From the IMG/VR virus record IMGVR_UViG_3300032239_000223, positions 1-53,172 of that record: a DNA stretch of 53,172 nt; one strand, given 5' to 3'. The translations under genes and the position numbers were made by a program. How positions within the stretch are numbered: position 1 is the stretch's first letter; each line of letters opens with the position of its first letter. The notes beneath the pieces are model-generated. The model was not told the origin of the DNA, ran no database searches, and worked only from the letters and a program-made list of their open reading frames with translations. This document shows positions 529-32,896 of the stretch, one piece after another. Source of the stretch: a virus (Duplodnaviria > Caudoviricetes).

Positions 529-1385
529 GCGTTTTTGATTCAAGCAGTACAGTTAATACAACCCTGCCGTCTTGGTTTACTTCTGCACAGCAGAACATTG
601 CCACACAGGCACCCACAACCTATGGTGCGGTTACAGACCCAAGTAAAACGGTTGCCGCTGGTTTAGTCAGCAATTTGAACAGTCAACTTGCCAACCCGTT
701 TACAACATCAATCACAGGCTTACAGGCGTCACAAACGGCCAACGCAAGTCCTTGGTTGGCTTCTGGTGCGCCAGACACGTCTACACCCTTGGGTGGGTTA
801 TTTGCCGCGCAAAACGCCAAGCTAGACACCCTGCTTCCTCAGATTACAGCCAACGAGGGAGCGCAAGGTATTGGAACCGGCAACTACCGATCTTTGCGTG
901 GAGACACCGCAACACAAACAGCCCGTGCAGGCGCACTGGCTTCATTGAACGCAGACCAGCTTAAAGCCGCTTTGGAGGCCGGAAGTCAATCGATCCAAGC
1001 CGGTCAGGCTTTAGGCAACGTGGGCGCTCAGTACGGCTCCACTGGCGTTAACGTGGCCAACCAAGAGATGTTGGGCGGCTTGCCTGCGTTGGCTAAATAC
1101 AGCGACATCATTAACGCAATGGGCCCAACAACTAATAAAGAAGTTGCTACTGTGAGTAAAGGTAGCCCATACGAAAATCTGCTCAAGGCCTTTAACGCGG
1201 TTGGTGCCGCAGGCTCTGCGTATGATAAACTAACGAGCGGTAGTACAGGTCTTTCTTGGTTGGATAATATACTTAAAAATCCATCGTTCGCAGGAAGCAA
1301 CGCGGAGAACAATGCAGGAACAGATTATAGTGGCGATATTAGCCAATCGGGCCACTGGGAAGGTGGCGAGTGGGTTAATGATTAA
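525..1385 (+). CDS. Putative DNA ejection/pilot protein
   Basis: 286 aa, Ala/Gly/Gln/Thr-rich, in an operon with internal virion proteins. Confidence 0.55.
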   Translation: MSVFDSSSTVNTTLPSWFTSAQQNIATQAPTTYGAVTDPSKTVAAGLVSNLNSQLANPFTTSITGLQASQTANASPWLASGAPDTSTPLGGLFAAQNAKLDTLLPQITANEGAQGIGTGNYRSLRGDTATQTARAGALASLNADQLKAALEAGSQSIQAGQALGNVGAQYGSTGVNVANQEMLGGLPALAKYSDIINAMGPTTNKEVATVSKGSPYENLLKAFNAVGAAGSAYDKLTSGSTGLSWLDNILKNPSFAGSNAENNAGTDYSGDISQSGHWEGGEWVND

Positions 1386-1396
1386 GGAATATACAA

Positions 1397-3106
1397 ATGG
1401 CACTTGAAGATACAACCGGCGGCTTGCCCTCTGACGAACCGCAGATTAAAGCGACGATGCCAAAGGCTGGTGGGCTTTCGCTTGCCGGTCAAAAAGGCGT
1501 GTCCTTAAACCCCGCAGACAGCGCAGACATTCGTGATCGTTTGATGCAAATGATTCAACAGCGCGAACAAGCCGCGTCAGGTTGGGGCCCCATCATGGAA
1601 CAGGCCGCAGTTTCTGCCGGTGGTCCCGGTACCTTTGCAACAAACTTGCAAAATTACAACACCAACCAACGCAATAAAGAAAGTGAACTCTTTAACATGC
1701 GCGTGGGTCTGGCACAGCTTAACACTGAAGACGCGCGCATTAAACAAGCACAACAAGAAAAAGCACAAAACGATGCTATGTTCTTTAGCTTGCTTGGTGT
1801 TAAACCCCCACAGGCAGGCGCCGCTCCGGTTGCAGGCCCACAAGGTGGTGCCGCTCCTGTTGCAGGCCCTCAGGTAGGCGCCGCTCCGATTGCAGGCCCA
1901 CAAGGTGGTGCCGCTCCGATTGCAGGCCCACAAGGTGGTGCCGCTCCGGTTGCAGGTCCTCAAGCAGGCGCCGCACCTGTCAGCAATGTTGGCCAAGAAC
2001 CAATGGCTGAAATCTTTGCTTTGTATCGTCAAGACCCCAAAGCCGCGATCAATAAACTGATTGAGATGCGCAAGGTTGATGATGTACAAAAACGCTTGAT
2101 TGCCGCTGGCGTACAACCCGGCTCTGATCAATGGAATACTGCATTGTTCAGCAACGTCGCTGGTGCAAGCGCGTTCATTCCGCATGATGTGCGCGGACCC
2201 GGCGGTACAACTCAGCAGACACCATTTAGTGCCGCGGGTGCTGTTATGGGTAATAAACCTCCTGCGGCCCCTGCTCCAATGGCGGCTACTCAAGGCGCCC
2301 CAATTGTCACGGCTCCTGCACCAATGGCGGCTTCTGTGCCTGCGGCGACTTCTATGGGTGCGGTTCCTGCTCCAGCGCAAGGAGGAACGCTATCCCCAAG
2401 TTCCAAAGAAGGTTTGGAGTTGCAAAAAGAGAGAGAATCTATCCCTATTGCCGCCGCAAAACAAGAAGCATTGAAAGTTGCTGAGACAGCGGCTAAAGAA
2501 CAAGAGCAACACAGCGCTGATGTAAAAGAAGCGCAGAACAATTCGATGATTGCTCAGAGCATGCAAAAAGATATTCGTAAAGCGGATAGCCTGTTAGGTA
2601 AACTTGCGGGTGGTGGTGCGCAGTCTGCGTTCTTTGGTTTGATTGATGGTGGTATTCAAGTTGGTCAATTAGGGTCGGTTAATCTGCCACGTTTTACAGA
2701 AGCTGTTGTCAAGATGGACCCCAAAGCCAAAGACCCTGCTGTCATGGACGCATACGTCCGTGTGGCTCAGAACGTAGAAGGCTTGAAGTTAGCTTACACA
2801 CGTAAAGTGTTCCAAGGCCAAGGCTCCGTTACAGAGAATGAGCGTAAGTTGATCTCTACAGCCGTGGGTGATGTCAACCACATGTCACCTGCTAACTTGA
2901 TGCGCATGGCCAAAGCCACTGAACTTGAAGCACGCAATAAGATGGACCAAGATCGTTTGTGGACCCAAATGAAAGACGCAGGAGTTTCTTGGAATCAATT
3001 TAAGTCAAGTCCTGAACTTAAAGAAATGCAACGTCAACAATTCTACCGCACCGCTAAAGCGTTCCGTATTGACAACGCTGTATACCCCGGAGACGAGCAA
3101 CGATGA
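1397..3106 (+). CDS. Putative internal virion (ejection) protein with Pro/Ala/Gly repeats
   Basis: 569 aa, AAGGA RBS, Gln/Ala-rich helical regions, position in the module. Confidence 0.6.
   Translation: MALEDTTGGLPSDEPQIKATMPKAGGLSLAGQKGVSLNPADSADIRDRLMQMIQQREQAASGWGPIMEQAAVSAGGPGTFATNLQNYNTNQRNKESELFNMRVGLAQLNTEDARIKQAQQEKAQNDAMFFSLLGVKPPQAGAAPVAGPQGGAAPVAGPQVGAAPIAGPQGGAAPIAGPQGGAAPVAGPQAGAAPVSNVGQEPMAEIFALYRQDPKAAINKLIEMRKVDDVQKRLIAAGVQPGSDQWNTALFSNVAGASAFIPHDVRGPGGTTQQTPFSAAGAVMGNKPPAAPAPMAATQGAPIVTAPAPMAASVPAATSMGAVPAPAQGGTLSPSSKEGLELQKERESIPIAAAKQEALKVAETAAKEQEQHSADVKEAQNNSMIAQSMQKDIRKADSLLGKLAGGGAQSAFFGLIDGGIQVGQLGSVNLPRFTEAVVKMDPKAKDPAVMDAYVRVAQNVEGLKLAYTRKVFQGQGSVTENERKLISTAVGDVNHMSPANLMRMAKATELEARNKMDQDRLWTQMKDAGVSWNQFKSSPELKEMQRQQFYRTAKAFRIDNAVYPGDEQR
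1808..1981 (+). repeat. About six 30-bp tandem repeats encoding PQ(A/G/V)GAAP(V/I)AG
   Basis: Repeated ccacaaggtggtgccgctccg(g/a)ttgcaggc units visible directly. Confidence 0.9.
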
Positions 3107-6100
3107 ACGGGCTTGAAGCACTCAGTCCGAAACAACGTGCTACAGCACAGCGCGTGATTGCGGAAGCAAAAGCGCAGGGTGTGCCGCCCAACTTGGCGTA
3201 TGGCATGGCCATGCAAGAAAGCGGCTTTGACCAAAGCAAAAAATCCAAGACAGGACCCACTGGCGTAATGATGCTTGGTAAAGCGGCCGCTAAAGATGTG
3301 GGTGTGAACCGCCACAACGAAATGGAAAACATTCGTGGCGGCGTGGCGTACATGAAACAAATGCTTGACAAGTATAACGGCGACGTTGATAAAGCGTTGA
3401 TTGCGTACCACGATGGCCCCAACAGCGCATATTTTACAAATGGCCAAGCAAGCCCTGCCGCCATAAACCATATTCAAAAAGTTAAAGGATACGCAGGTAT
3501 GCCAACTTCTACCACACCCGCCGCCCCAATCTCTGCCGCAGGGCCATCAAAATCAGGCTTCAGTGTAAACATTGAAGACGTTGAGCCACTTGACATTACA
3601 GGTCTTGCAGGCACGACTGCGCCCGCTGTAGGTTTCGGTCGTCAGCGCGACATGTCAGACGTTATGATGGGTGGCACCGGCGCTATGGCAGGTTTTGCTT
3701 TTGGTCCTGACAAACCAAAGACTAAAAAACAACTCGACCAGATGCGCATTCAGATTGCCGCAGATCGTGCCGCAAGAGAAGCGCAAGCCCAAGCGGCCGC
3801 CGCAAACAAACCTGCCGTATTTGGCTCTGGTAAAGATGCATGGAACGCTAACCAACACAATCAAATGTTGGCGCAGACTTTAGCCCCGTTGCCTAGTCAG
3901 GCCGCCATGGGTTCGGCAGAGCCTGTTGCACGCGCACAGCTTGCAAAAGCTCAAGAGATGTTCCCTAACATGTCACTTGCGGGCCCTGAATCTTTGATTG
4001 CTTTACCTAACACAGTTGGTCAAGGTAACAAAATATTACCTGCAATAACCGCGCCCACAACAACAGGGGCATTGCCAGTAGCAGGCCCCAAGCCAATTAA
4101 CTTTGGTTCACGCACAGGCCAATTAGCCAACACAATTGCCGGCGGCATGGCTGGCGCGCAAGTCAACGATATGGCACAGCGTGCCGCACAAGGTGACTAC
4201 ACAGGAAGCGCATTGGCCGGTTTGAGCGCCGCTGGTGCAGGTGCTACATTTGCACCTAACCCCAAAGCAAAATTGCTTGGCGCCGCAACAAGCGCGGGTG
4301 CCGCAGGTCTTCAGTACTTGTATGACCTTTTCAAAACACCTGACGAAACTAAGTCTGTGTTGCAACCAGAGGGTGCTCCACCCAAACTTAAAGAGGGTGG
4401 TGCAATAAAAAAGTCCGACGGCGGTCTACCCGCCGTGGCACACTTTGACAAGGGTGGTTTAGGTAAGATTGTTGCCGGTAAAGTTGCCGGCGCTTTTGGT
4501 CAGGCCCCGGGCCAGATCATCATGCCAACTGCAGAAGAGATTGCAAAGTTTACACCCAAACCAACACAGCAACTTAAATTTAGCGAGGCCATTAGGCCCT
4601 ACCAAGACCATTACCTTGGTGTGCACATGTCTGACAGACAGGGTGTTCATGGTGGTCGTTGGGGCGGCACTGGCTTTCCTAACTTCCAGAACATCAACCC
4701 CATTCATTCGGCCAACAAGGCTGTGTGGATGAACGACAGTGAAGACGCCGCCAACAGACTCATTCAGTCTGCTAGAGAGTTTAACGGCCGTCCTATAATC
4801 AACACCAACTATATTGGTGCGCCTGATCAACACAGGTCTAACAAGACAGTGTTTAACGACGTGCTTGACACGTTCTATAAAAACCAAGCCGCGGGACAAA
4901 TAACGCCAGAGCAAATTGAAAAAATCAACCAAGCTATTTTGAGCAAAGCCAAGACAACAGGCACGCTAAAAAACCTCCCGTTCAATGATAAGTTTGACAT
5001 CAGGGACAAAGATGCTGTCAAGGCGATTGCCGGAGAAACATTTGAGGGCCGAAAGGCTATGGGCGACTTACTTGGTATGGGCCTTGGAACACGCAAGCCC
5101 GCAACTGTGCCACAGTATGCAAACATCCTAGAAGACCACGCAGACCCCTTTACAAAAGGCGCTCCTACAAGCGCGGTTGGTACACGTCTGTTTAAGGTGG
5201 ACAATGTGCCTGCGCAGTACACAGACGATGTGTTGCACCCAGACTATCGTTGGAAAGTAACAGGAACAGACCAACAGGTGCAGTTCCCTGCGGTGCCACA
5301 AAGCGTCGCTGTGCGTGATTGGTACAACGAGATCAAGCCACGTATTGGCATGGAGCCCCATGGCAACGCATGGTTCTCTTATCCAAAGCGTCCACAACTT
5401 ATTAGCAAAGACTACATTACCATGGCAGAGGATGCCGGTTACGCAGAGGGTGGTTTAACTGGTGTACCACATTACGATAAAGGCGGTAGGACGGGTGTTC
5501 TGACGCGCCTTGCTGAATCAGCATACGACATTTTAAAGTTGACGCCTGAAAAGGTTGAGGCATGGCGCAAAGCCAACGCAAAGCCGTTTAAGCAACAGCA
5601 GGATCCACAACTGGCCCAAGCGCTTGAAGCGTACATGACAGGCAAAATATCACAGGCCGACTACCTGCGAATTATGAACGAGCGCAGGCCAATTCGCCCG
5701 TTAACTGAGGTGCCTACCGCGCACTCTGATACGGACATTGCTTCTGCACTGCTTCCAAATCAAGTTGAGAAAAAAGGTATTTTAGGGGTGAATTTATTTG
5801 CTCCACAGGGCATGCGCGTTGGCAACCGCCTCGACATTCCTGCATACGAGCGTTATGGCACCTACGTTGACACGATGCACGACCCTACAGGCAAGCCAAT
5901 TGCCTATGGTCACACAGGACATTTAAAGAACGTAGAGTTTCAGTCTGATCCCAACAGGGCCATTCGCGTGGGACTTGGAACTAGAGAACAAGGAATGACA
6001 CCCTTGGCGCTTGAAGAGGGTCAAGGCAAGGCGCCGTTTGCTATGATGGTTGGTGACAACCAAGTCACAAGCAACGACGAGGTCCGCAGGATGCTTGCAG

Positions 6101-20866: not shown

Positions 20867-21110
20867 GTCTTTGCTCCATCTCGGCCGCTAGGCTGTCTAG
20901 TTGGTCGTGTGCGTCGGGGTTCCATATTGCGTCGTCTAGCGACGGGCCCTGTATGGTCGTGTTGATGGTCCATGTGTCTGCCTCTCGGGTAAACAGGGGC
21001 CGCAGGTACCGGCCCAACATCGCGTCGTCCACTAACCGGTCGGCCCTTGCCCGCTCCAGTTCGTACGACCGCTTGTAGGCCTCTGCTAGTTGTATCATTC
21101 TGTCAATCAT
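20850..21110 (-). CDS. Hypothetical protein
   Basis: 86 aa in operon. Confidence 0.55.
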   Translation of the reverse strand: MIDRMIQLAEAYKRSYELERARADRLVDDAMLGRYLRPLFTREADTWTINTTIQGPSLDDAIWNPDAHDQLDSLAAEMEQRHEPRI

Positions 21111-21627
21111 AATCTTCTTCCGTTATTTGGTCTTTCTTGTACGCGTCCAGTGACACCGGTTGTCTCTGGCTCACCACCAGTCTGTCGCGGACCCTGCTCT
21201 CTGTCAGGCCCGTCAACTTGGCCACCTCTTTGGTCGTTGGGTCCCTGTTGAGCACCTGTGCCAACTCGGTCTCCACCCGCTTGATCTTGCGCAGGTCCTC
21301 CTGCACCGACACAGGCACGTGGATCAGTAGGGCCTTATTCTCTACTGCTCTGAGCACTTGGCTCTTGATCAGTGTGCGTGCGTAACTCGCAAACCTTCCC
21401 TGCGGTTTCCACCTGTGCGCGGCCTTCATCAGGGCCATGTAGCCCTCCTGCAGTAGGTCGTCGCGTGTCATACTGCTGTTCAGGTCCCACTGCGGCAACT
21501 TCTGCACGATGTACACCACCAGTCCCATGTTGGCTTCCACCAACTGCTCGTGGGCCTCCTCGTCACCCTGCACGATCCGGTGGTGCAGTTCGATCTCTTG
21601 TTCTGCCGTCAGTAGTTGTCGTCTCAT
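21103..21627 (-). CDS. Sigma70-family sigma factor (regions 1.2-3 only, no region 4)
   Basis: LLTAEQEIEL (1.2), LVEANMGLVV (2.1), DLLQEG..ALMKAA (2.2), RFASYA (2.3), IHVPV, LNRDPTTKEVA (3), ending at PVSLD. Confidence 0.85.
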   Translation of the reverse strand: MRRQLLTAEQEIELHHRIVQGDEEAHEQLVEANMGLVVYIVQKLPQWDLNSSMTRDDLLQEGYMALMKAAHRWKPQGRFASYARTLIKSQVLRAVENKALLIHVPVSVQEDLRKIKRVETELAQVLNRDPTTKEVAKLTGLTESRVRDRLVVSQRQPVSLDAYKKDQITEEDYD

Positions 21628-21905
21628 CGTTGGTCCATTGCGTTGTCGTAGTTGAGCATGGCCTGCACCCCATCCTCTCTGCCGGCATCGTACGCGTCCC
21701 ATGACTCACAGTCGCACACGTACCGGCCCGCTTGGTGGCTTGCCTCTCTCGCAAACCCGTGTGGTGCCTTTGAGTGTGTGTTGCACTTGGGTTGTTGGGC
21801 GTCGGGGTGCTTGGCCCCCTGTTGGTACGCGAACTCGACCAACTCCACTGTGCGGTGGTCCACGTTGACTATTTGCAACATCTGTTTAATGTCGTCTAGG
21901 TTCAT
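21624..21905 (-). CDS. Hypothetical protein, Cys/His-containing
   Basis: C..H..APHGF.R..SH....YVC.C.W motif. Confidence 0.65.
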   Translation of the reverse strand: MNLDDIKQMLQIVNVDHRTVELVEFAYQQGAKHPDAQQPKCNTHSKAPHGFAREASHQAGRYVCDCESWDAYDAGREDGVQAMLNYDNAMDQR

Positions 21906-22629: not shown

Positions 22630-22755
<126 letters not shown>

Positions 22756-22916
22756 CAAAGTATTCAATTTTAGTTGACGCGTCTGAAACTTACACGAAAC
22801 TTACGCGTTGCTTAAAATTTAATCAAAGTAGCAGATCACGGCCAGTAGGACGATGGCCCACCGCGGCTGTTTGGCCGCCCACAGGGCCAGTACACCAAAT
22901 AACCCCGCCAAGGCCA

Positions 22917-25122: not shown

Positions 25123-25162
25123 GGTTTGCTCCTTTGTATTGATATGGTCAACTGGGGGTGAA

Positions 25163-25606
25163 TTAGGCCCCTTGGTATGAATGCTCCTCGGCAAACTGTT
25201 CTTCAAACGCGGCCAGTATGAACAGGCCCATCTTGTCTTCGATGCGCTCCTGTGTGTCACCACTGAGCATGCTGTCCATCCACCGACGGGCCTTGATCTC
25301 TTTAGCCACGCCTGCAATTTTAAACAGCGTGCTGAACTCACGGGCCCTGTTGCACAGGCCGTTGTTGTACAGGTCGTAGTAGCAGTTAACTGCGCGCCTG
25401 AATGCCTCTAGGTGTTTGTTGGCACCTTGGCCGCCTTCCACCTCACCAATGGCCGGCAGAAGCTTCTCTAACGCGTCGGCCTTCAATTGGTACCGACCTT
25501 GGCCGGTCCAGTATGTTCTGTTCATGGTTTTCTCCTCTGTTGGGTTGCGGAAGTCTTGGGGTTTCTCGGCCTCGAATTCGGCCATTGTTTTGATTTCTGT
25601 GCTCAT
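25163..25606 (-). CDS. Early hypothetical protein
   Basis: YW...G.YQ...YYDLYNNGLCN motif; stop inside the repeat. Confidence 0.7.
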   Translation of the reverse strand: MSTEIKTMAEFEAEKPQDFRNPTEEKTMNRTYWTGQGRYQLKADALEKLLPAIGEVEGGQGANKHLEAFRRAVNCYYDLYNNGLCNRAREFSTLFKIAGVAKEIKARRWMDSMLSGDTQERIEDKMGLFILAAFEEQFAEEHSYQGA

Positions 25607-25653
25607 GGTGTGCTCCTGTGTTGTTGATACTACTATGGTCAACTGGGGGTGAA

Positions 25654-25989
25654 TTAAAAAGGGATGTCATCAAAGTCTTCGGGAATGTAGCGCGCCTTGC
25701 GCTCAATCACCGGCCTTGGGTATATGAACATGTCGACGGCCTCGCAGGCCCCGAACTCTTCATAATTCTTGTCGATGTACGCCTGCGCCTCTTCCTGCGT
25801 GTCGAATGCCTCCATGATGTGTGGCATGGTGCCCATGGTCGCGTCGGTGTAGGGGCAGTATGCTAGGGCCTCCACCATGACCACGTGTTTGCCGGCCTCG
25901 TGTTGTGCCTGCGCCTCTTCCATGGTCTTTGTGACCCTGTGCCACTTTTGCATTTTGGCCGTCTCGTATGCGTTTTGGAAATCGTTCAT
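25654..25989 (-). CDS. Early hypothetical protein
   Basis: 111 aa ending DFDDIPF (SSB-tail-like); stop inside the repeat. Confidence 0.65.
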   Translation of the reverse strand: MNDFQNAYETAKMQKWHRVTKTMEEAQAQHEAGKHVVMVEALAYCPYTDATMGTMPHIMEAFDTQEEAQAYIDKNYEEFGACEAVDMFIYPRPVIERKARYIPEDFDDIPF

Positions 25990-27471: not shown

Positions 27472-27550
27472 GGTTTTCTCTTGTTGATACTACTATGGTC
27501 AATTGGGGGTGAATTGATCTGCAATGGCCTGATCCACAGGCCATCACGCA

Positions 27551-28127: not shown

Positions 28128-28216
28128 GGTTTGCTCCTTTTGGTTACTGATACTACTATGGTCATTTGGGGGTGAATTGATCTGCAATGGCCTGCACGCA
28201 GGCCATCACGCATCAA

Positions 28217-29285: not shown

Positions 29286-29370
29286 GATGGCCTCCTTTTG
29301 GTTGGTGATACTACTATGGTCAATTGGGGGTGAATTGATCTGCAATGGCCTGCACGCAGGCCATCACGCA

Positions 29371-29670
29371 TCAATTGCCTTGGGTGTCGGCCTGATAGGC
29401 CTCGTCCCATGCGTCCATGAATGGTTCCACTGACCAATCCATCATCGTCTCTTCGGGTTCGAGGCCGTATGCGCTGACCTTGGCCCAACCGACCACGTTG
29501 TCGTCGCTGTCACGCACGCGCAGGTCTGCCTCTTCTACAGACTTGACCGCGTCCATGATGTCCTTGAAACCTGTGGATCGTTTGACCTGCCACTCTTCAC
29601 CATCAAACACCGAAATGGTGCATTGTTTGGCTAATGAGTATTTGATAAAGTGAATGTATGCTGTTTGCAT
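29371..29670 (-). CDS. First early gene, hypothetical
   Basis: ISVFDGEEW.VKRS motif; follows the most upstream repeat core. Confidence 0.7.
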   Translation of the reverse strand: MQTAYIHFIKYSLAKQCTISVFDGEEWQVKRSTGFKDIMDAVKSVEEADLRVRDSDDNVVGWAKVSAYGLEPEETMMDWSVEPFMDAWDEAYQADTQGN

Positions 29671-29886
29671 GGTGTGTTCCTTTGGGGTTTGGTTTACTTA
29701 CACTACTATGGTCATTTGGGGGTGAATTAGGATCAGCAGTAGACGACCGACTAGGGAAATCGCGTGACGTTATATATTAGTGCAATCACGCTAGACAGGC
29801 CCCTAGGCCTCGCGTGCGCATGCAACATAGTGCACAGGCAATTAGGCAGACATGCAATATAGTGCATGTTGTGCGCGTGCCACACT

Positions 29887-30186
29887 AGCAAGATCCGTGC
29901 CATGTCCACGTTGGCATGCTTCTTGCTATTAGCAACATACGTGCCACTGTGCCTTGGCATGCTTCTTGCTAATAGCAACATACGTGCCATGTCCACGTTG
30001 GCATGCTTTTTGCTTGCCATGCAAGATCCGTGCCAGCTTGGCCTGCATACTATACCCAGTAGGGTATGCGCCTCGGTGCCTACTATACCCAGTAGGGTAT
30101 GCGGCCGAGCGGTACTATACCCAGTAGGGTATGCGCGATACCCCTACCAGTATGGGTATGCTGTCCACGTTGGCATACTTCTTGCT
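29887..30186. promoter_or_regulatory. Array of eight sigma54 (-24/-12) consensus sites in alternating orientation
   Basis: TGGCA-N6-TTGC(T/A) with exact GG-N10-GC spacing: plus 29911, 29954, 29998, 30170; minus 29887, 29931, 29974, 30020. Confidence 0.75.
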
Positions 30187-30316
30187 AGGGGGCGTTGTTT
30201 TTTAGCGACACCCCATTTAGGGTCCCATCGGACTACCGGGGCGGGGGGCCCCCACAGCCAGCAAGTTTTTGTAATTTCCGCCATAATTTTTTTTACATAT
30301 ACCCCCGGGGGTATAT
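30048..30316. repeat. Five TACC-N5-GGGTA palindromic boxes (CsoR/RcnR-operator-like)
   Basis: TACTATACCCAGTAGGGTATGCG three times (30048, 30081, 30113), a variant at 30145, and the perfect palindrome ATATACCCCCGGGGGTATAT at 30297-30316. Confidence 0.75.
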
Positions 30317-30383: not shown

Positions 30384-30510
<127 letters not shown>

Positions 30511-30587: not shown

Positions 30588-31460
30588 ATGGGAATCGACG
30601 CACGTACCCCCATTCCCACCACTGCCGGATGGCAGTTAGCAAGGTTTATCAAACCGGGGGATGAGGTTTTTGATTACACGGGCCTGCCCGTCATGGTTGT
30701 TTCTGTTCAGGAGTACACGCCGGTGGTGTGTCATAAGATCTGGACCAAGGACGGCCTGACGTTGGTGGTGGATAGCCGCACTGGCATTCCGGTGTACGAC
30801 AGCAAGTTATTCCTCACACTGTCTAAGTGGGGGCGCAAGCAACAGCCCAAAGAAGATTACATTCTCCCCATCTACGCGCCACAGAACCTAGCCACCATAG
30901 ACACGGGCTGGTGCAGAATGCCAACGTGCTACCCAATCAAACCCACAGCCAAGCCGCTACCCCTCCACCCCTACGACATGGGTGTGTGGATAGGGGACCC
31001 ACACAGGGACAGGCGCACCCACGTAACCTCCAAGCTGATCGAGAGTTACGGCAAGATACCAGACCACATTCCAGAAGAGTACCTGTTCTCATCCTTTGAG
31101 CAACGACTGGCTATACTCCGGGGGGTATGCGCCTCCAGACCAAAGTGCCACAGCAAGGTCTCGGCCAAGTTCAGGTTCTACATTAAAGACCTGCGGCTGT
31201 TCAGGTCAATCCACAACCTGACAGAGTCCCTAGGTATCAGGACAGAGATAGCACAACACCAACACCAGTTCTACATGGTGTTTAGGACCAACCTCATGTT
31301 GGTCGAGGACCAGATTCCTGTGCGCCGGCCGCACTACGAAGAGATGCGCAGGATTACCCATGTTACCAGTGTGGACATTAGACCCTGCATGCACATCAAG
31401 ACCGAAGACCCGAACAACACGTTCCTAGTAAGCGAGGGGTACCTGACAGTATGCCTATGA
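30588..31460 (+). CDS. Free-standing degenerate intein (Hint + LAGLIDADG-like) protein
   Basis: TPIPT..GW...I.PGD.VF...G.P..V (block A region), PY.MG.WIGD, HIPEEYLFSSFEQRLAILRG, HI..EDPNNTFL (block F); ends GYLTVCL rather than HN. Confidence 0.75.
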   Translation: MGIDARTPIPTTAGWQLARFIKPGDEVFDYTGLPVMVVSVQEYTPVVCHKIWTKDGLTLVVDSRTGIPVYDSKLFLTLSKWGRKQQPKEDYILPIYAPQNLATIDTGWCRMPTCYPIKPTAKPLPLHPYDMGVWIGDPHRDRRTHVTSKLIESYGKIPDHIPEEYLFSSFEQRLAILRGVCASRPKCHSKVSAKFRFYIKDLRLFRSIHNLTESLGIRTEIAQHQHQFYMVFRTNLMLVEDQIPVRRPHYEEMRRITHVTSVDIRPCMHIKTEDPNNTFLVSEGYLTVCL

Positions 31461-32896
31461 ACGACACACAGCAAAAGCTACTCAAGGCGTTTGCAGACCA
31501 AAACAAGGGATGGCCCAAGGAGCAACTGGATCTGGCCCTGTGGCGTGTGAGGTGGGAGCTAACGGCACTACCGCACCAACAAGAGCCGGAGGACGGGGAG
31601 TATGACACGTTCTTACTTTTGGCCGGCCGAGGTTCGGGCAAGACGCACACGGCGTCCAACTGGCTTGGATTAAGGGCGGCGATCTACGACAAGACCCGCT
31701 GGTTGGTGACGGCCCCAACATCAAACGACATTCGCGCAACGTGCTTCGAGGGTGACTCAGGCCTCTTAAACATCATACCCCCGTCACTGGTCAAGGACTA
31801 CAACAAGTCGCTGTTTGAGTTGACGCTAAAAAATGGAAGCATGATCCGCGGCATCCCTGCGTCTGAGCCAGAGCGCTTCCGGGGTACGCAGTGGCACGGC
31901 ATGTGGGCAGACGAGTTGTGTGCGTTCGAGTACATCGACGACGCGTACGACCAAATTCAGTTCACGTTGCGACTGACAGACCCGCGCATCGCTAGGGTAC
32001 AGTCGATCATCACCACCACACCCAAGCCACTGGAACTAATCACGGACCTGAACGAGGGCAAGGTCGGCGGCGACGTGTACGTGTCCCGTGCGTCCAGCTA
32101 CGACAACAGGTCAAACTTATCCAGCACGTTCTTCAAACAACTAGAAGCGTACGAGGGCACGGACCTAGGACGTCAGGAGATCTACGGCGAGATCTTGGAC
32201 CCAGAGAACGCGGGTATTGTCAAGCGTAAATGGTTCAGGAACTGGCCGGCACACAAACCAACGCCGACGCTGGAGTACGTGCTGGTGTCATACGACCCAG
32301 CGACCTCTGAGAAGACACACAACGACCCGACCGCGTGCATCGCGTTGGGTGTGTTCGAGCAAGATGACTTTGCAACAAGTTGCATTTTGCTCGACGCGTG
32401 GGACAACCACCTGTCGTACCCTGAGTTGCGGCGTAAAGTCATTGAAGACTACAAGGAGGTTGTGTATGGAGCAGACAACACCTTTGCCAAGGGCAAGAAA
32501 ACGGACCTCATCTTGATGGAAGATAAGTCGGCCGGTATCAGTCTGATACAAGAACTACAGGCCGCGCACCTGCCGGTGCGGTCATACAACCCCGGACGCG
32601 CGGATAAGGTGCAGAGGATGAACATTGTGGCGCCGTTGATTGCAAAAGGGCGGGTGTACGTGCCAGAAGACCCTGAAAACCCGGGCGAGGTGGCCCCGTG
32701 GGCCAAGCGTTTCATCAGGCAGGTGTGTTCTTTTCCCGAGGCCAAGGGCCACGACGACTACGTTGACGCACTTTCACAGGCCCTGCGCGTTCTAAGAGAC
32801 TCAGGTTGGCTCCAGTTGGACCCACTGCCGGCGCGAGACTACGTGCACGCAGACGACATAGCGCGAAACAGGGTGAATAACCCCTACGCCGCGTGA
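31451..32896 (+). CDS. terL: Terminase large subunit
   Basis: AGRGSGKT Walker A, WADE Walker B, TTTPK, YDPA nuclease motif, HDDYVDA. Confidence 0.95.
   Translation: MPMNDTQQKLLKAFADQNKGWPKEQLDLALWRVRWELTALPHQQEPEDGEYDTFLLLAGRGSGKTHTASNWLGLRAAIYDKTRWLVTAPTSNDIRATCFEGDSGLLNIIPPSLVKDYNKSLFELTLKNGSMIRGIPASEPERFRGTQWHGMWADELCAFEYIDDAYDQIQFTLRLTDPRIARVQSIITTTPKPLELITDLNEGKVGGDVYVSRASSYDNRSNLSSTFFKQLEAYEGTDLGRQEIYGEILDPENAGIVKRKWFRNWPAHKPTPTLEYVLVSYDPATSEKTHNDPTACIALGVFEQDDFATSCILLDAWDNHLSYPELRRKVIEDYKEVVYGADNTFAKGKKTDLILMEDKSAGISLIQELQAAHLPVRSYNPGRADKVQRMNIVAPLIAKGRVYVPEDPENPGEVAPWAKRFIRQVCSFPEAKGHDDYVDALSQALRVLRDSGWLQLDPLPARDYVHADDIARNRVNNPYAA

Follow-up and report, generated by a model that had tools for sequence, protein, structure and literature searches.

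An array of sigma-54-like sites between divergent gene blocks

The IMG/VR virus record IMGVR_UViG_3300032239_000223 (Duplodnaviria; Caudoviricetes), analysed here in full as a linear window of 53,172 bp that is judged 82% complete, contains a compact array of eight sites matching the −24/−12 consensus of promoters recognised by sigma-54 (RpoN). These sites are the only exact matches to TGGCAY-N5-TTGCW in the record and all fall within positions 29887–30186, four on each strand (p1–p4 on the plus strand and m1–m4 on the minus strand, Table 1), compared to 0.35 matches expected by dinucleotide shuffling; none of 100 shuffles attained eight. Our favoured reading, to which we assign a probability of roughly 0.4, is that these are sites for the host sigma-54 holoenzyme that would act as activator-dependent promoters arranged in opposed pairs, rather than a pure sink for the factor.

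The array has a regular construction. GG and GC are exactly ten bases apart, inside the form TGGCAC-N5-TTGC, in each of the eight sites. Like-oriented sites recur with a start-to-start period of 43–46 bp, and the −12 boxes of three opposed pairs (hereafter, twins) are separated by 3, 3 and 5 bp. When one mismatch is allowed, 14 matches are found record-wide against 7.4 expected, and the six extra ones are scattered. The number, location and spacing of the sites all agree with an earlier note on this DNA, made from the sequence alone, which had described them as a tandem array of sigma-54 binding sites.

Conservation of the array in related phages

Relatives were gathered by an IMG/VR search with the 290-residue protein encoded immediately to the right of the array, which gave 30 loci, 29 of them at 83–93% amino-acid identity. 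The earlier note had proposed a look for the same array between the early genes and terL in such relatives. The array, 417–753 bp upstream of the gene for the 290-residue protein, recurs at the same place in each of the 13 loci whose upstream sequence reaches 700 bp or more, and comprises 4–7 exact sites there, or 5–9 when one-mismatch sites are included. One locus with 655 bp of upstream sequence contains the first two sites; 11 loci with shorter upstream sequence have none, the contig ending before the array. More distant relatives, whose TerL proteins are 73–79% identical (one with a G+C fraction of 0.63), also have arrays. No array was found by the terminase genes of the cultured relatives nearest by TerL (a Manatee Spring virus, 53% identity; Caulobacter phages RW and kin, 43%), which offered no clue to function, and a DNA search of a phage collection with the array region returned nothing related, as did searches with two other array-bearing loci.

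An alignment of the intergenic regions of eight phages (this phage and seven relatives) shows which parts of the sites are retained. TGGCAYG and TTGCT are constant, while the central four or five bases vary freely (GCTTC, GATAC, GAAGC, GTATG, GCATT, GGACC and others). Frequent one-mismatch variants (CGGCAC, AGGCAC and TGTGCT) retain GG-N10-GC; a few two-mismatch matches at the array edges lose GG and may be decayed sites or chance occurrences. The three twins form the conserved core. The behaviour of these arrays, which keep GG-N10-GC while the spacer changes, together with the presence of the motif in unrelated phages (see below), upholds the view that the sites behave as sigma-54 elements.

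Recurrence in unrelated phages

A strict twin pattern (TGGCAYG-N4-TTGCT, one to eight bases, then the complement) was scanned through IMG/VR and matched 48 stretches, compared to none for a reversed control pattern. Similarity to the present phage was detected by tblastx in 18 of these stretches and was absent from the other 30. Sorted by the genes around them, the viral loci form about 20 or more separate groups, and their G+C fractions run from 0.38 to 0.63. Many of them contain far more sites than the pair used for the search. Three loci (L043, L048 and L059) have nine sites within 200 bp, another (L056) has 14 exact and 32 one-mismatch sites, and a complete 169-kb phage (G001) has 11 of its 12 sites inside 2.8 kb.

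Open reading frames (ORFs) within 3–20 kb of the arrays were compared across 37 groups of loci (24 viral and 13 bacterial). No protein family is common to the array-bearing groups within this distance, although a binder encoded farther off is possible. The most widely shared neighbours are TerL, located within 3 kb of the array in seven of the 37 groups, the 290-residue family (five groups) and a GP88-family protein (PF17338, three groups). That the motif is identical across very different phages having no neighbouring protein in common points towards a host factor that is conserved. In addition to the common motif, each lineage has its own second repeat family beside it: ATACCC palindromes in the present phage, GTTCGAACGTTTGTACGA in L056, and TAACAGAGCTCTGTTA in the 169-kb phage, placed 4 bp ahead of each site. 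In the present phage, CATGCAAYATAGTGCA occurs twice on the left side of the array, and the ATACCC-N4-GGGTAT palindrome three to four times on its right side. A shared motif accompanied by a lineage-specific repeat is the layout expected of enhancer-dependent promoters, and the occurrence of the same paired sites in many unrelated phages suggests a widespread, undescribed engagement of sigma-54 by phages.

The position of the array, 400–700 bp upstream of the 290-residue gene and TerL, invites the alternative that it is a packaging signal, either the pac or cos site that the small terminase recognises or a platform for proteins where the virion DNA physically ends. The earlier note had placed the array near a probable genome end, and many related contigs do terminate in this region; the neighbourhood of TerL in other groups fits as well. 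A DNA-end location finds no support in the 13 related loci that run through the region, and the 11 short contigs end at scattered points, 2–571 bp upstream of the 290-residue gene and mostly at a poly-T hairpin or other repeats, which fits assembly breaks. The sites of small terminases are specific to a lineage, whereas this motif occurs in phages whose neighbouring genes are unrelated and, in the 169-kb phage, stands among small genes; the nearest cultured relatives by TerL lack it near their terminase genes. Judged by contig ends and motif sharing, the array appears neither to be situated at a DNA end nor to be specific to the phage's own terminase, and we regard a packaging role as highly improbable. 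The small terminase TerS, which the earlier note had named as a possible alternative binder, is likewise unlikely, since phages whose packaging genes are unrelated have the motif in identical form.

Identity of the binder

The statistics of the sites were examined in 467 kb of array-bearing loci, with 222 distinct sites from this phage and from other viral and phage-like bacterial contigs. The N5 spacer is strict, with 224 matches, compared to 0–2 for each of the spacers N2–N4 and N6–N9. The base before TGG, which was unconstrained by the searches, is T in 137 sites and C in 44 (181/222, 82%). The base after CAY is G in 153 and A in 57 (210/222, 95%), where G was forced in the strict viral pairs only. 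The degenerate positions of the extended sigma-54 consensus, a pyrimidine before TGG, a purine after CAY and A or T after TTGC, are all followed. Sigma-54 sites of Salmonella bound in chromatin immunoprecipitation (ChIP) share this form, the top-scoring one being TGGCATGCCTTTTGCT (Table 3 of PMC3844500). By our own count, the strict pattern fits only roughly one in three of the natural intergenic sites in that table, compared to eight of eight in the phage array.

The strict spacer and the consensus-like flanking bases make host sigma-54 RNA polymerase, rather than a phage protein, the most likely binder, and we consider that sigma-54 probably does bind the array sites. We infer that they are −24/−12 promoter elements of the strongest consensus class, predicted docking sites for the holoenzyme.

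Cellular genomes were also scanned. The strict twin pattern has no match in 596 billion bases of bacterial and archaeal genomes (about 0.07 expected by chance, our own estimate). A looser pair pattern matches 58 stretches, compared to about four by chance, again by our own estimate. Part of these loose matches (Pseudonocardia, Streptosporangium, Streptomyces and several Saprospiraceae contigs) were set aside as perfect hairpins in which the spacers are complementary too; such hairpin-type repeats are found in L097, L100, L111 and L131 (Actinobacteria) and, dispersed, in L102, L124, L134, L148 and L149 (one Saprospiraceae metagenome-assembled genome, MAG). Sixteen loci from 13 genomes contain at least three sites; most are short contigs of MAGs or regions filled with small unknown genes, from Bacteroidota, Planctomycetota, Proteobacteria, Leptospira, Gemmatimonadota and Clostridia. 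The sigma-54 DNA-binding domain (PF04552) was detected in 11 of these 13 genomes, the other two being incomplete MAGs, and in 33 of the 46 genomes tested overall, one of them marginally. The rate of 11 in 13 is compatible with a sigma-54 host and is weak evidence, because a base rate is lacking. In one contig (L128, 383 kb, from a Chitinophagales MAG that encodes sigma-54), positions 766–5371 contain 12 sigma-54-consensus sites, mostly on one strand, within 8 kb of small unknown genes; this region is possibly an integrated phage-like element.

DnaA boxes and origin-like features

Three to six perfect DnaA boxes (TTATCCACA) are located 100–250 bp from the array in five loci of at least three groups (Table 1). 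Relatives of the present phage (L053, L063 and L077) as well as unrelated phages are represented, the other two loci being L072 and L082. Overall, 21 perfect boxes lie within 400 bp of sites (75.7 kb), compared to three in the other 450 kb. One of these loci, L082, has a close relative, L043, that has extra sigma-54-like sites in place of the DnaA boxes. The region resembles a control and probable origin hub, built largely from host-factor sites. In the present record, no DnaA box within one mismatch was found at 29.7–30.6 kb, where the poly-T hairpin is present.

These features also fit a different binder. The sites could be iterons or operators at a phage origin whose binder is not sigma-54 but, for example, a replication initiator of the phage, a partition protein or some host protein that has escaped recognition. 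This protein would bind the 16-bp unit, or the 34–38-bp twin as a dimer, and the likeness to the sigma-54 consensus would be coincidental. The DnaA boxes near five arrays, an A+T-rich hairpin nearby, and the strand switch and turn in AT skew that coincide with the array are all origin-like. A dimer site would also account for the preferred twin gap of 2–3 bp, for the absence of opposed gaps of 10–19 bp, and for minus-strand halves of twins in the 169-kb phage that have no gene to serve (see below). However, initiator and operator sites are normally lineage-specific, whereas the same motif is found here in about 20 or more unrelated groups over a wide range of G+C, with no shared protein within the 3–20 kb compared. 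An iteron origin would combine a lineage-specific repeat with a cognate initiator gene nearby, a combination that was not found; none of this phage's proteins tested belongs to a Rep-, O- or ParB-like family. The degenerate positions, too, follow the sigma-54 consensus, the twin gap varies over 1–6 bp, which is beyond the tolerance of a rigid dimer, and the array of this phage has no accompanying DnaA box. We regard another binder at an origin as unlikely; the weight that it retains comes chiefly from the DnaA boxes beside the arrays and from the likeness of a twin to a dimer site.

A bolder proposal unites both host factors. Arrays of twin sigma-54 sites, often with DnaA-box clusters, could constitute a "host-factor capture hub" in many unrelated phage lineages, holding sigma-54 polymerase, and also DnaA, on phage DNA in the absence of a conventional activator. 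Such a hub might serve as a DNA sponge that silences those host responses that depend on sigma-54, or it might open and prime a phage origin by means of a poised alternative-sigma polymerase, which would be a new mechanism. We consider this proposal speculative and improbable.

Twins as possible activator-dependent promoters

In the favoured reading of the array as twin promoters, the three twins of the core, each composed of a plus-strand and a minus-strand site with −12 boxes 3–5 bp apart, would be tightly closed promoters that depend on an activator. A single polymerase at a time would load on a twin, in either direction. From the site coordinates, the two start points of a twin are predicted to lie about 18 bp apart and to point outward (for p1/m2, near 29938 and 29920). 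Firing would proceed leftward into the early and replication genes and rightward towards the packaging genes, and an activator or regulator would bind the flanking lineage-specific repeats (CATGCAAYATAGTGCA to the left of the array and ATACCC-N4-GGGTAT to its right). From the 3–5 bp between opposed −12 boxes and the lack of a credible gene after them, the earlier note had judged productive transcription unlikely; the spacing stands, and the judgement is weakened both by the outward direction of the predicted starts and by the position of the sites in the 169-kb phage.

In that phage, single and twin sites stand after an intrinsic terminator and ahead of the gene that follows it. Four repeated cassettes on one strand each contain, in order, a terminator, a palindrome, a single site, a palindrome, a twin, a sigma-28-like promoter, a ribosome site and a gene, and 13 further sigma-28-like promoters are found downstream of the cassettes. 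The sigma-28-like motifs (TAAAGTT-N12-CCGATAT and TAAGTTT-N13-RCCGATAA) total 18 in L090 18169–19980 and L091 384–17615 of G001, four of them directly after twins. The expression of this phage seems to be governed by alternative sigma factors of its host, of the flagellar type.

The gaps between neighbouring sites have preferred values. Among 60 opposed pairs with gaps of 1–8 bp, all eight of which were allowed equally by the search, 33 have the preferred gap of 2–3 bp, and no opposed gap of 10–19 bp was seen. Back-to-back sites peak at gaps of 7–8 bp and tandem sites at 11–12 bp.

Several observations weigh against the twins as promoters. No gene for an enhancer-binding protein (Sigma54_activat, PF00158) was found by six-frame searches of the present record, in line with the earlier note, or in five other array-bearing viral records, one of them complete. 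The outward-facing sites m1 and p4 would be the simplest fit to the flanking operons, yet they are the least conserved, being missing or replaced in most relatives; in four of the seven aligned relatives, the position of p4 is held by another ATACCC..GGGTAT palindrome. The gaps (2–3 bp opposed, 7–8 bp back to back) are too short for several holoenzymes to bind simultaneously. The minus half of each twin in the 169-kb phage faces no gene, so that bidirectional firing fails to explain the twinning. The sites are confined to one short region per genome instead of standing before many operons. Unpaired sites show no bias towards downstream genes (17 co-oriented, 15 opposite), nor do sites inside gene blocks (nine co-oriented, ten opposite), where both tests relied on crude ORF calls that were wrong in the one region checked by hand. 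Finally, the leftward genes have a conserved promoter motif of their own (AATTCACCCCCAAWTGACCATAGTAGTAT, six copies) and the phage encodes a sigma-70-family factor, so that sigma-54 is not plainly needed for expression.

Many of these points would be explained if the array were a sigma-54 sink, a decoy as suggested in the earlier note, on which closed complexes form that are not meant to fire. Multiplying phage DNA would then deplete the small sigma-54 pool and silence the host's sigma-54 responses; alternatively, the bound complexes could separate the early module from the divergent late one, as a roadblock or an insulator. Everything that identifies sigma-54 as the binder applies equally here, and sigma-54 holoenzyme is established to form stable closed complexes without an activator (PMC4987338). 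The sites are packed more densely than promoters need, in equal or near-equal orientations (4:4, 7:5, 6:4, 1:1 and 2:1 in five records), cluster in one place per genome and, by the crude ORF calls, show no orientation bias towards genes. The number of exact sites ranges from 4 to 9 among close relatives, the outward-facing sites are poorly conserved, no activator gene was found in six viral records, and clusters of sites for another host factor, DnaA, adjoin the arrays in several lineages. On the other hand, overlapping sites cannot all be occupied, and the sink would consequently be smaller than the site count implies; core polymerase trapped in this way would also be lost to the phage's own sigma factor; and the sites in the 169-kb phage hold ordinary promoter positions. 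Additionally, the idea has no precedent, as sigma-54 decoys or arrays in phages are not described in the open full-text literature searched. We consider a pure sink doubtful and favour activator-dependent twin promoters.

Genome setting and neighbouring elements

The array is situated in a 917-bp gap that divides a leftward gene block from a rightward block (Table 1). The leftward genes, at about 6.4–29.7 kb, include those for DNA polymerase, ribonucleotide reductase, helicase and primase. The rightward genes begin with that for the 290-residue protein, followed by TerL and a 918-residue portal protein. The 290-residue protein has a weak match to PHROGs of the "terminase large subunit", confined to their N-terminal parts, while TerL, with 481 residues, is complete; a similar additional "large terminase" fragment gene is present in Caulobacter phage RW. 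Searches of PDB, Pfam and NCBIfam assigned no family to the small proteins adjoining the array. The sigma-54 DNA-binding domain (Sigma54_DBD, PF04552) was not found in six-frame searches of this 82%-complete record.

Table 1. Positions of the array sites and of other features in and around the intergenic region, with DnaA-box clusters of five other loci
Feature	Position	Strand	Remarks
Site m1	29887..29902	-	TGGCACGGATCTTGCT; faces leftward early genes; absent from most relatives
Site p1	29912..29927	+	TGGCATGCTTCTTGCT; twin of m2, gap 3 bp
Site m2	29931..29946	-	TGGCACGTATGTTGCT; twin of p1
Site p2	29955..29970	+	TGGCATGCTTCTTGCT; twin of m3, gap 3 bp
Site m3	29974..29989	-	TGGCACGTATGTTGCT; twin of p2
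Site p3	29999..30014	+	TGGCATGCTTTTTGCT; twin of m4, gap 5 bp
Site m4	30020..30035	-	TGGCACGGATCTTGCA; twin of p3
Site p4	30171..30186	+	TGGCATACTTCTTGCT; faces packaging genes
First leftward gene	29371..29670	-	99 aa, function unknown, phrog_5680
First rightward gene	30588..31460	+	290 aa; TerL next at 31451-32896
Promoter-like motif AATTCACCCCCAAWTGACCATAGTAGTAT	29702..29740	-	Ahead of first leftward gene; one of six copies; conserved
Remaining AATTCACCCCCAAWTGACCATAGTAGTAT copies	29310-29344, 28152-28186, 27489-27523, 25629-25656, 25143-25167	-	About 25 nt before ribosome site of leftward genes
Repeat CATGCAAYATAGTGCA, two copies	29819..29866		45-95 bp upstream of plus-strand sites; variable in relatives
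Palindrome-bearing repeat ACTATACCCAGTAGGGTATGCG	30044..30161		Three direct copies and one variant; copy number varies among relatives
G+C-rich block, includes GGGGCGGGGGGCCCCC	30187..30270		Nearly invariant across eight aligned phages; surrounding intergenic DNA varies
Perfect palindrome ATATACCCCCGGGGGTATAT	30297..30316		Kept in relatives
Poly-T hairpin	30403..30506		Run of about 36 T flanked by the arms of a 41-nt inverted repeat; folding z −7.5 against shuffles
DnaA-box cluster, L053	4026-4073
DnaA-box cluster, L063	3433-3480
DnaA-box cluster, L077	13119-13166
DnaA-box cluster, L072	3320-3388
DnaA-box cluster, L082	9931-10055

Two of the repeats may be suitably placed to take part in regulation. 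Sigma-54 promoters are activated by AAA+ enhancer-binding proteins at sites about 80–150 bp farther upstream, and their transcripts begin about 12 nt downstream. The CATGCAAYATAGTGCA copies would occupy an enhancer-like position relative to the plus-strand sites, and the ACTATACCCAGTAGGGTATGCG repeats lie upstream of the minus-strand sites at what would be an enhancer-like distance. The G+C-rich block to the right of p4 was considered as a possible RNA gene and rejected, as the folding of 30186–30285 is no better than that of shuffled sequences on either strand. For the same reason, this block is probably a DNA-level signal, and it could be one for packaging or replication. An Rfam scan of the intergenic region returned just spurious likenesses of the long hairpin to microRNA precursors, and a scan for sigma-70 promoters and terminators yielded nothing above shuffles that accounts for the array.

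The poly-T hairpin, at which many related contigs break, has a second copy 7.7 kb away on the opposite strand (22630–22771, 90% alike). That copy is 50 bp from the sole perfect DnaA box of the record (22578). The motif AATTCACCCCCAAWTGACCATAGTAGTAT probably represents the promoter class used by the phage's own sigma factor or by a modified host polymerase. The phage sigma-70-family factor (199 residues, 21103–21702, minus strand) contains regions 1.2, 2 and 3 and lacks region 4; a homologue with 37% identity is found in relative L077.

Implications

Within the literature reached, the use of sigma-54 by phages rests on a single studied case, the single promoters of phage YuA. If sigma-54 does bind the twin arrays, a whole set of uncultured phages, with hosts of very different G+C content, engages the sole bacterial sigma factor that forms silent, activator-gated complexes, and does so through a composite element that, by the strict pattern, is not found in cellular genomes. 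It would then be asked how a phage fires or exploits sigma-54 polymerase without an enhancer-binding protein of its own, whether capture of an alternative sigma factor is a tactic of host takeover, and whether sigma-54 polymerase is coupled to DnaA at phage origins. The motif would also be a simple sequence marker that predicts rpoN in the host of a phage.

Comparison with known systems

Bidirectional sigma-70 promoters, in which the −10 elements overlap, owe their divergent starts, about 18 bp from each other, to the near-symmetry of the −10 hexamer. The twins would resemble them in placing two opposed promoters on one stretch of DNA, with a similar predicted distance between divergent starts. 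The sigma-54 motif, in contrast, is asymmetric, so that the twins require two full sites.

Iteron-type origins with DnaA boxes are exemplified by the plasmid-prophage P1 and by lambda ori, where the iterons match the cognate initiator and vary by lineage. In relatives of the present phage, the arrays are similar to these in that repeated sites of 16–20 bp stand by DnaA boxes and an A+T-rich element. They differ in that unrelated phages share one and the same repeat, and no initiator gene was found near the arrays. Nucleic-acid sinks are represented by datA for DnaA and 6S RNA for the sigma-70 holoenzyme; like these, the array offers many predicted high-affinity sites that would be able to hold a scarce factor off its targets, although no sink for sigma-54 is described in the literature searched.

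The chromosomal and intragenic sigma-54 sites of enterobacteria share the 16-bp motif with the array, bind holoenzyme silently and, in many cases, have no obvious gene to serve (PMC3844500, Table 3; PMC4591121). They are single and dispersed, whereas the phage sites are twinned in an array.

The closest phage counterpart is Pseudomonas phage YuA, some of whose promoters depend on sigma-54, as PMC10914365 states with reference to Ceyssens et al. (2008). In the open full-text literature, no phage was found to be described as having arrays, twins or decoys of sigma-54 sites, a point on which supplements such as the tables of YuA promoters in PMC10914365 may have a bearing. The YuA record (NC_010116) has three annotated "−24/−12" promoters, each single and located before a structural or lysis gene; its first 50 kb contain no strict-consensus site within one mismatch, and neither an array nor a twin. 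As far as these sources describe it, YuA has no RNA polymerase of its own, uses host sigma-54 at −24/−12 promoters and, ahead of other genes, has copies of a promoter motif specific to the phage, as is the case for AATTCACCCCCAAWTGACCATAGTAGTAT here. The present phage differs from YuA in having eight perfect sites within 300 bp, which alternate in orientation and stand away from coding starts.

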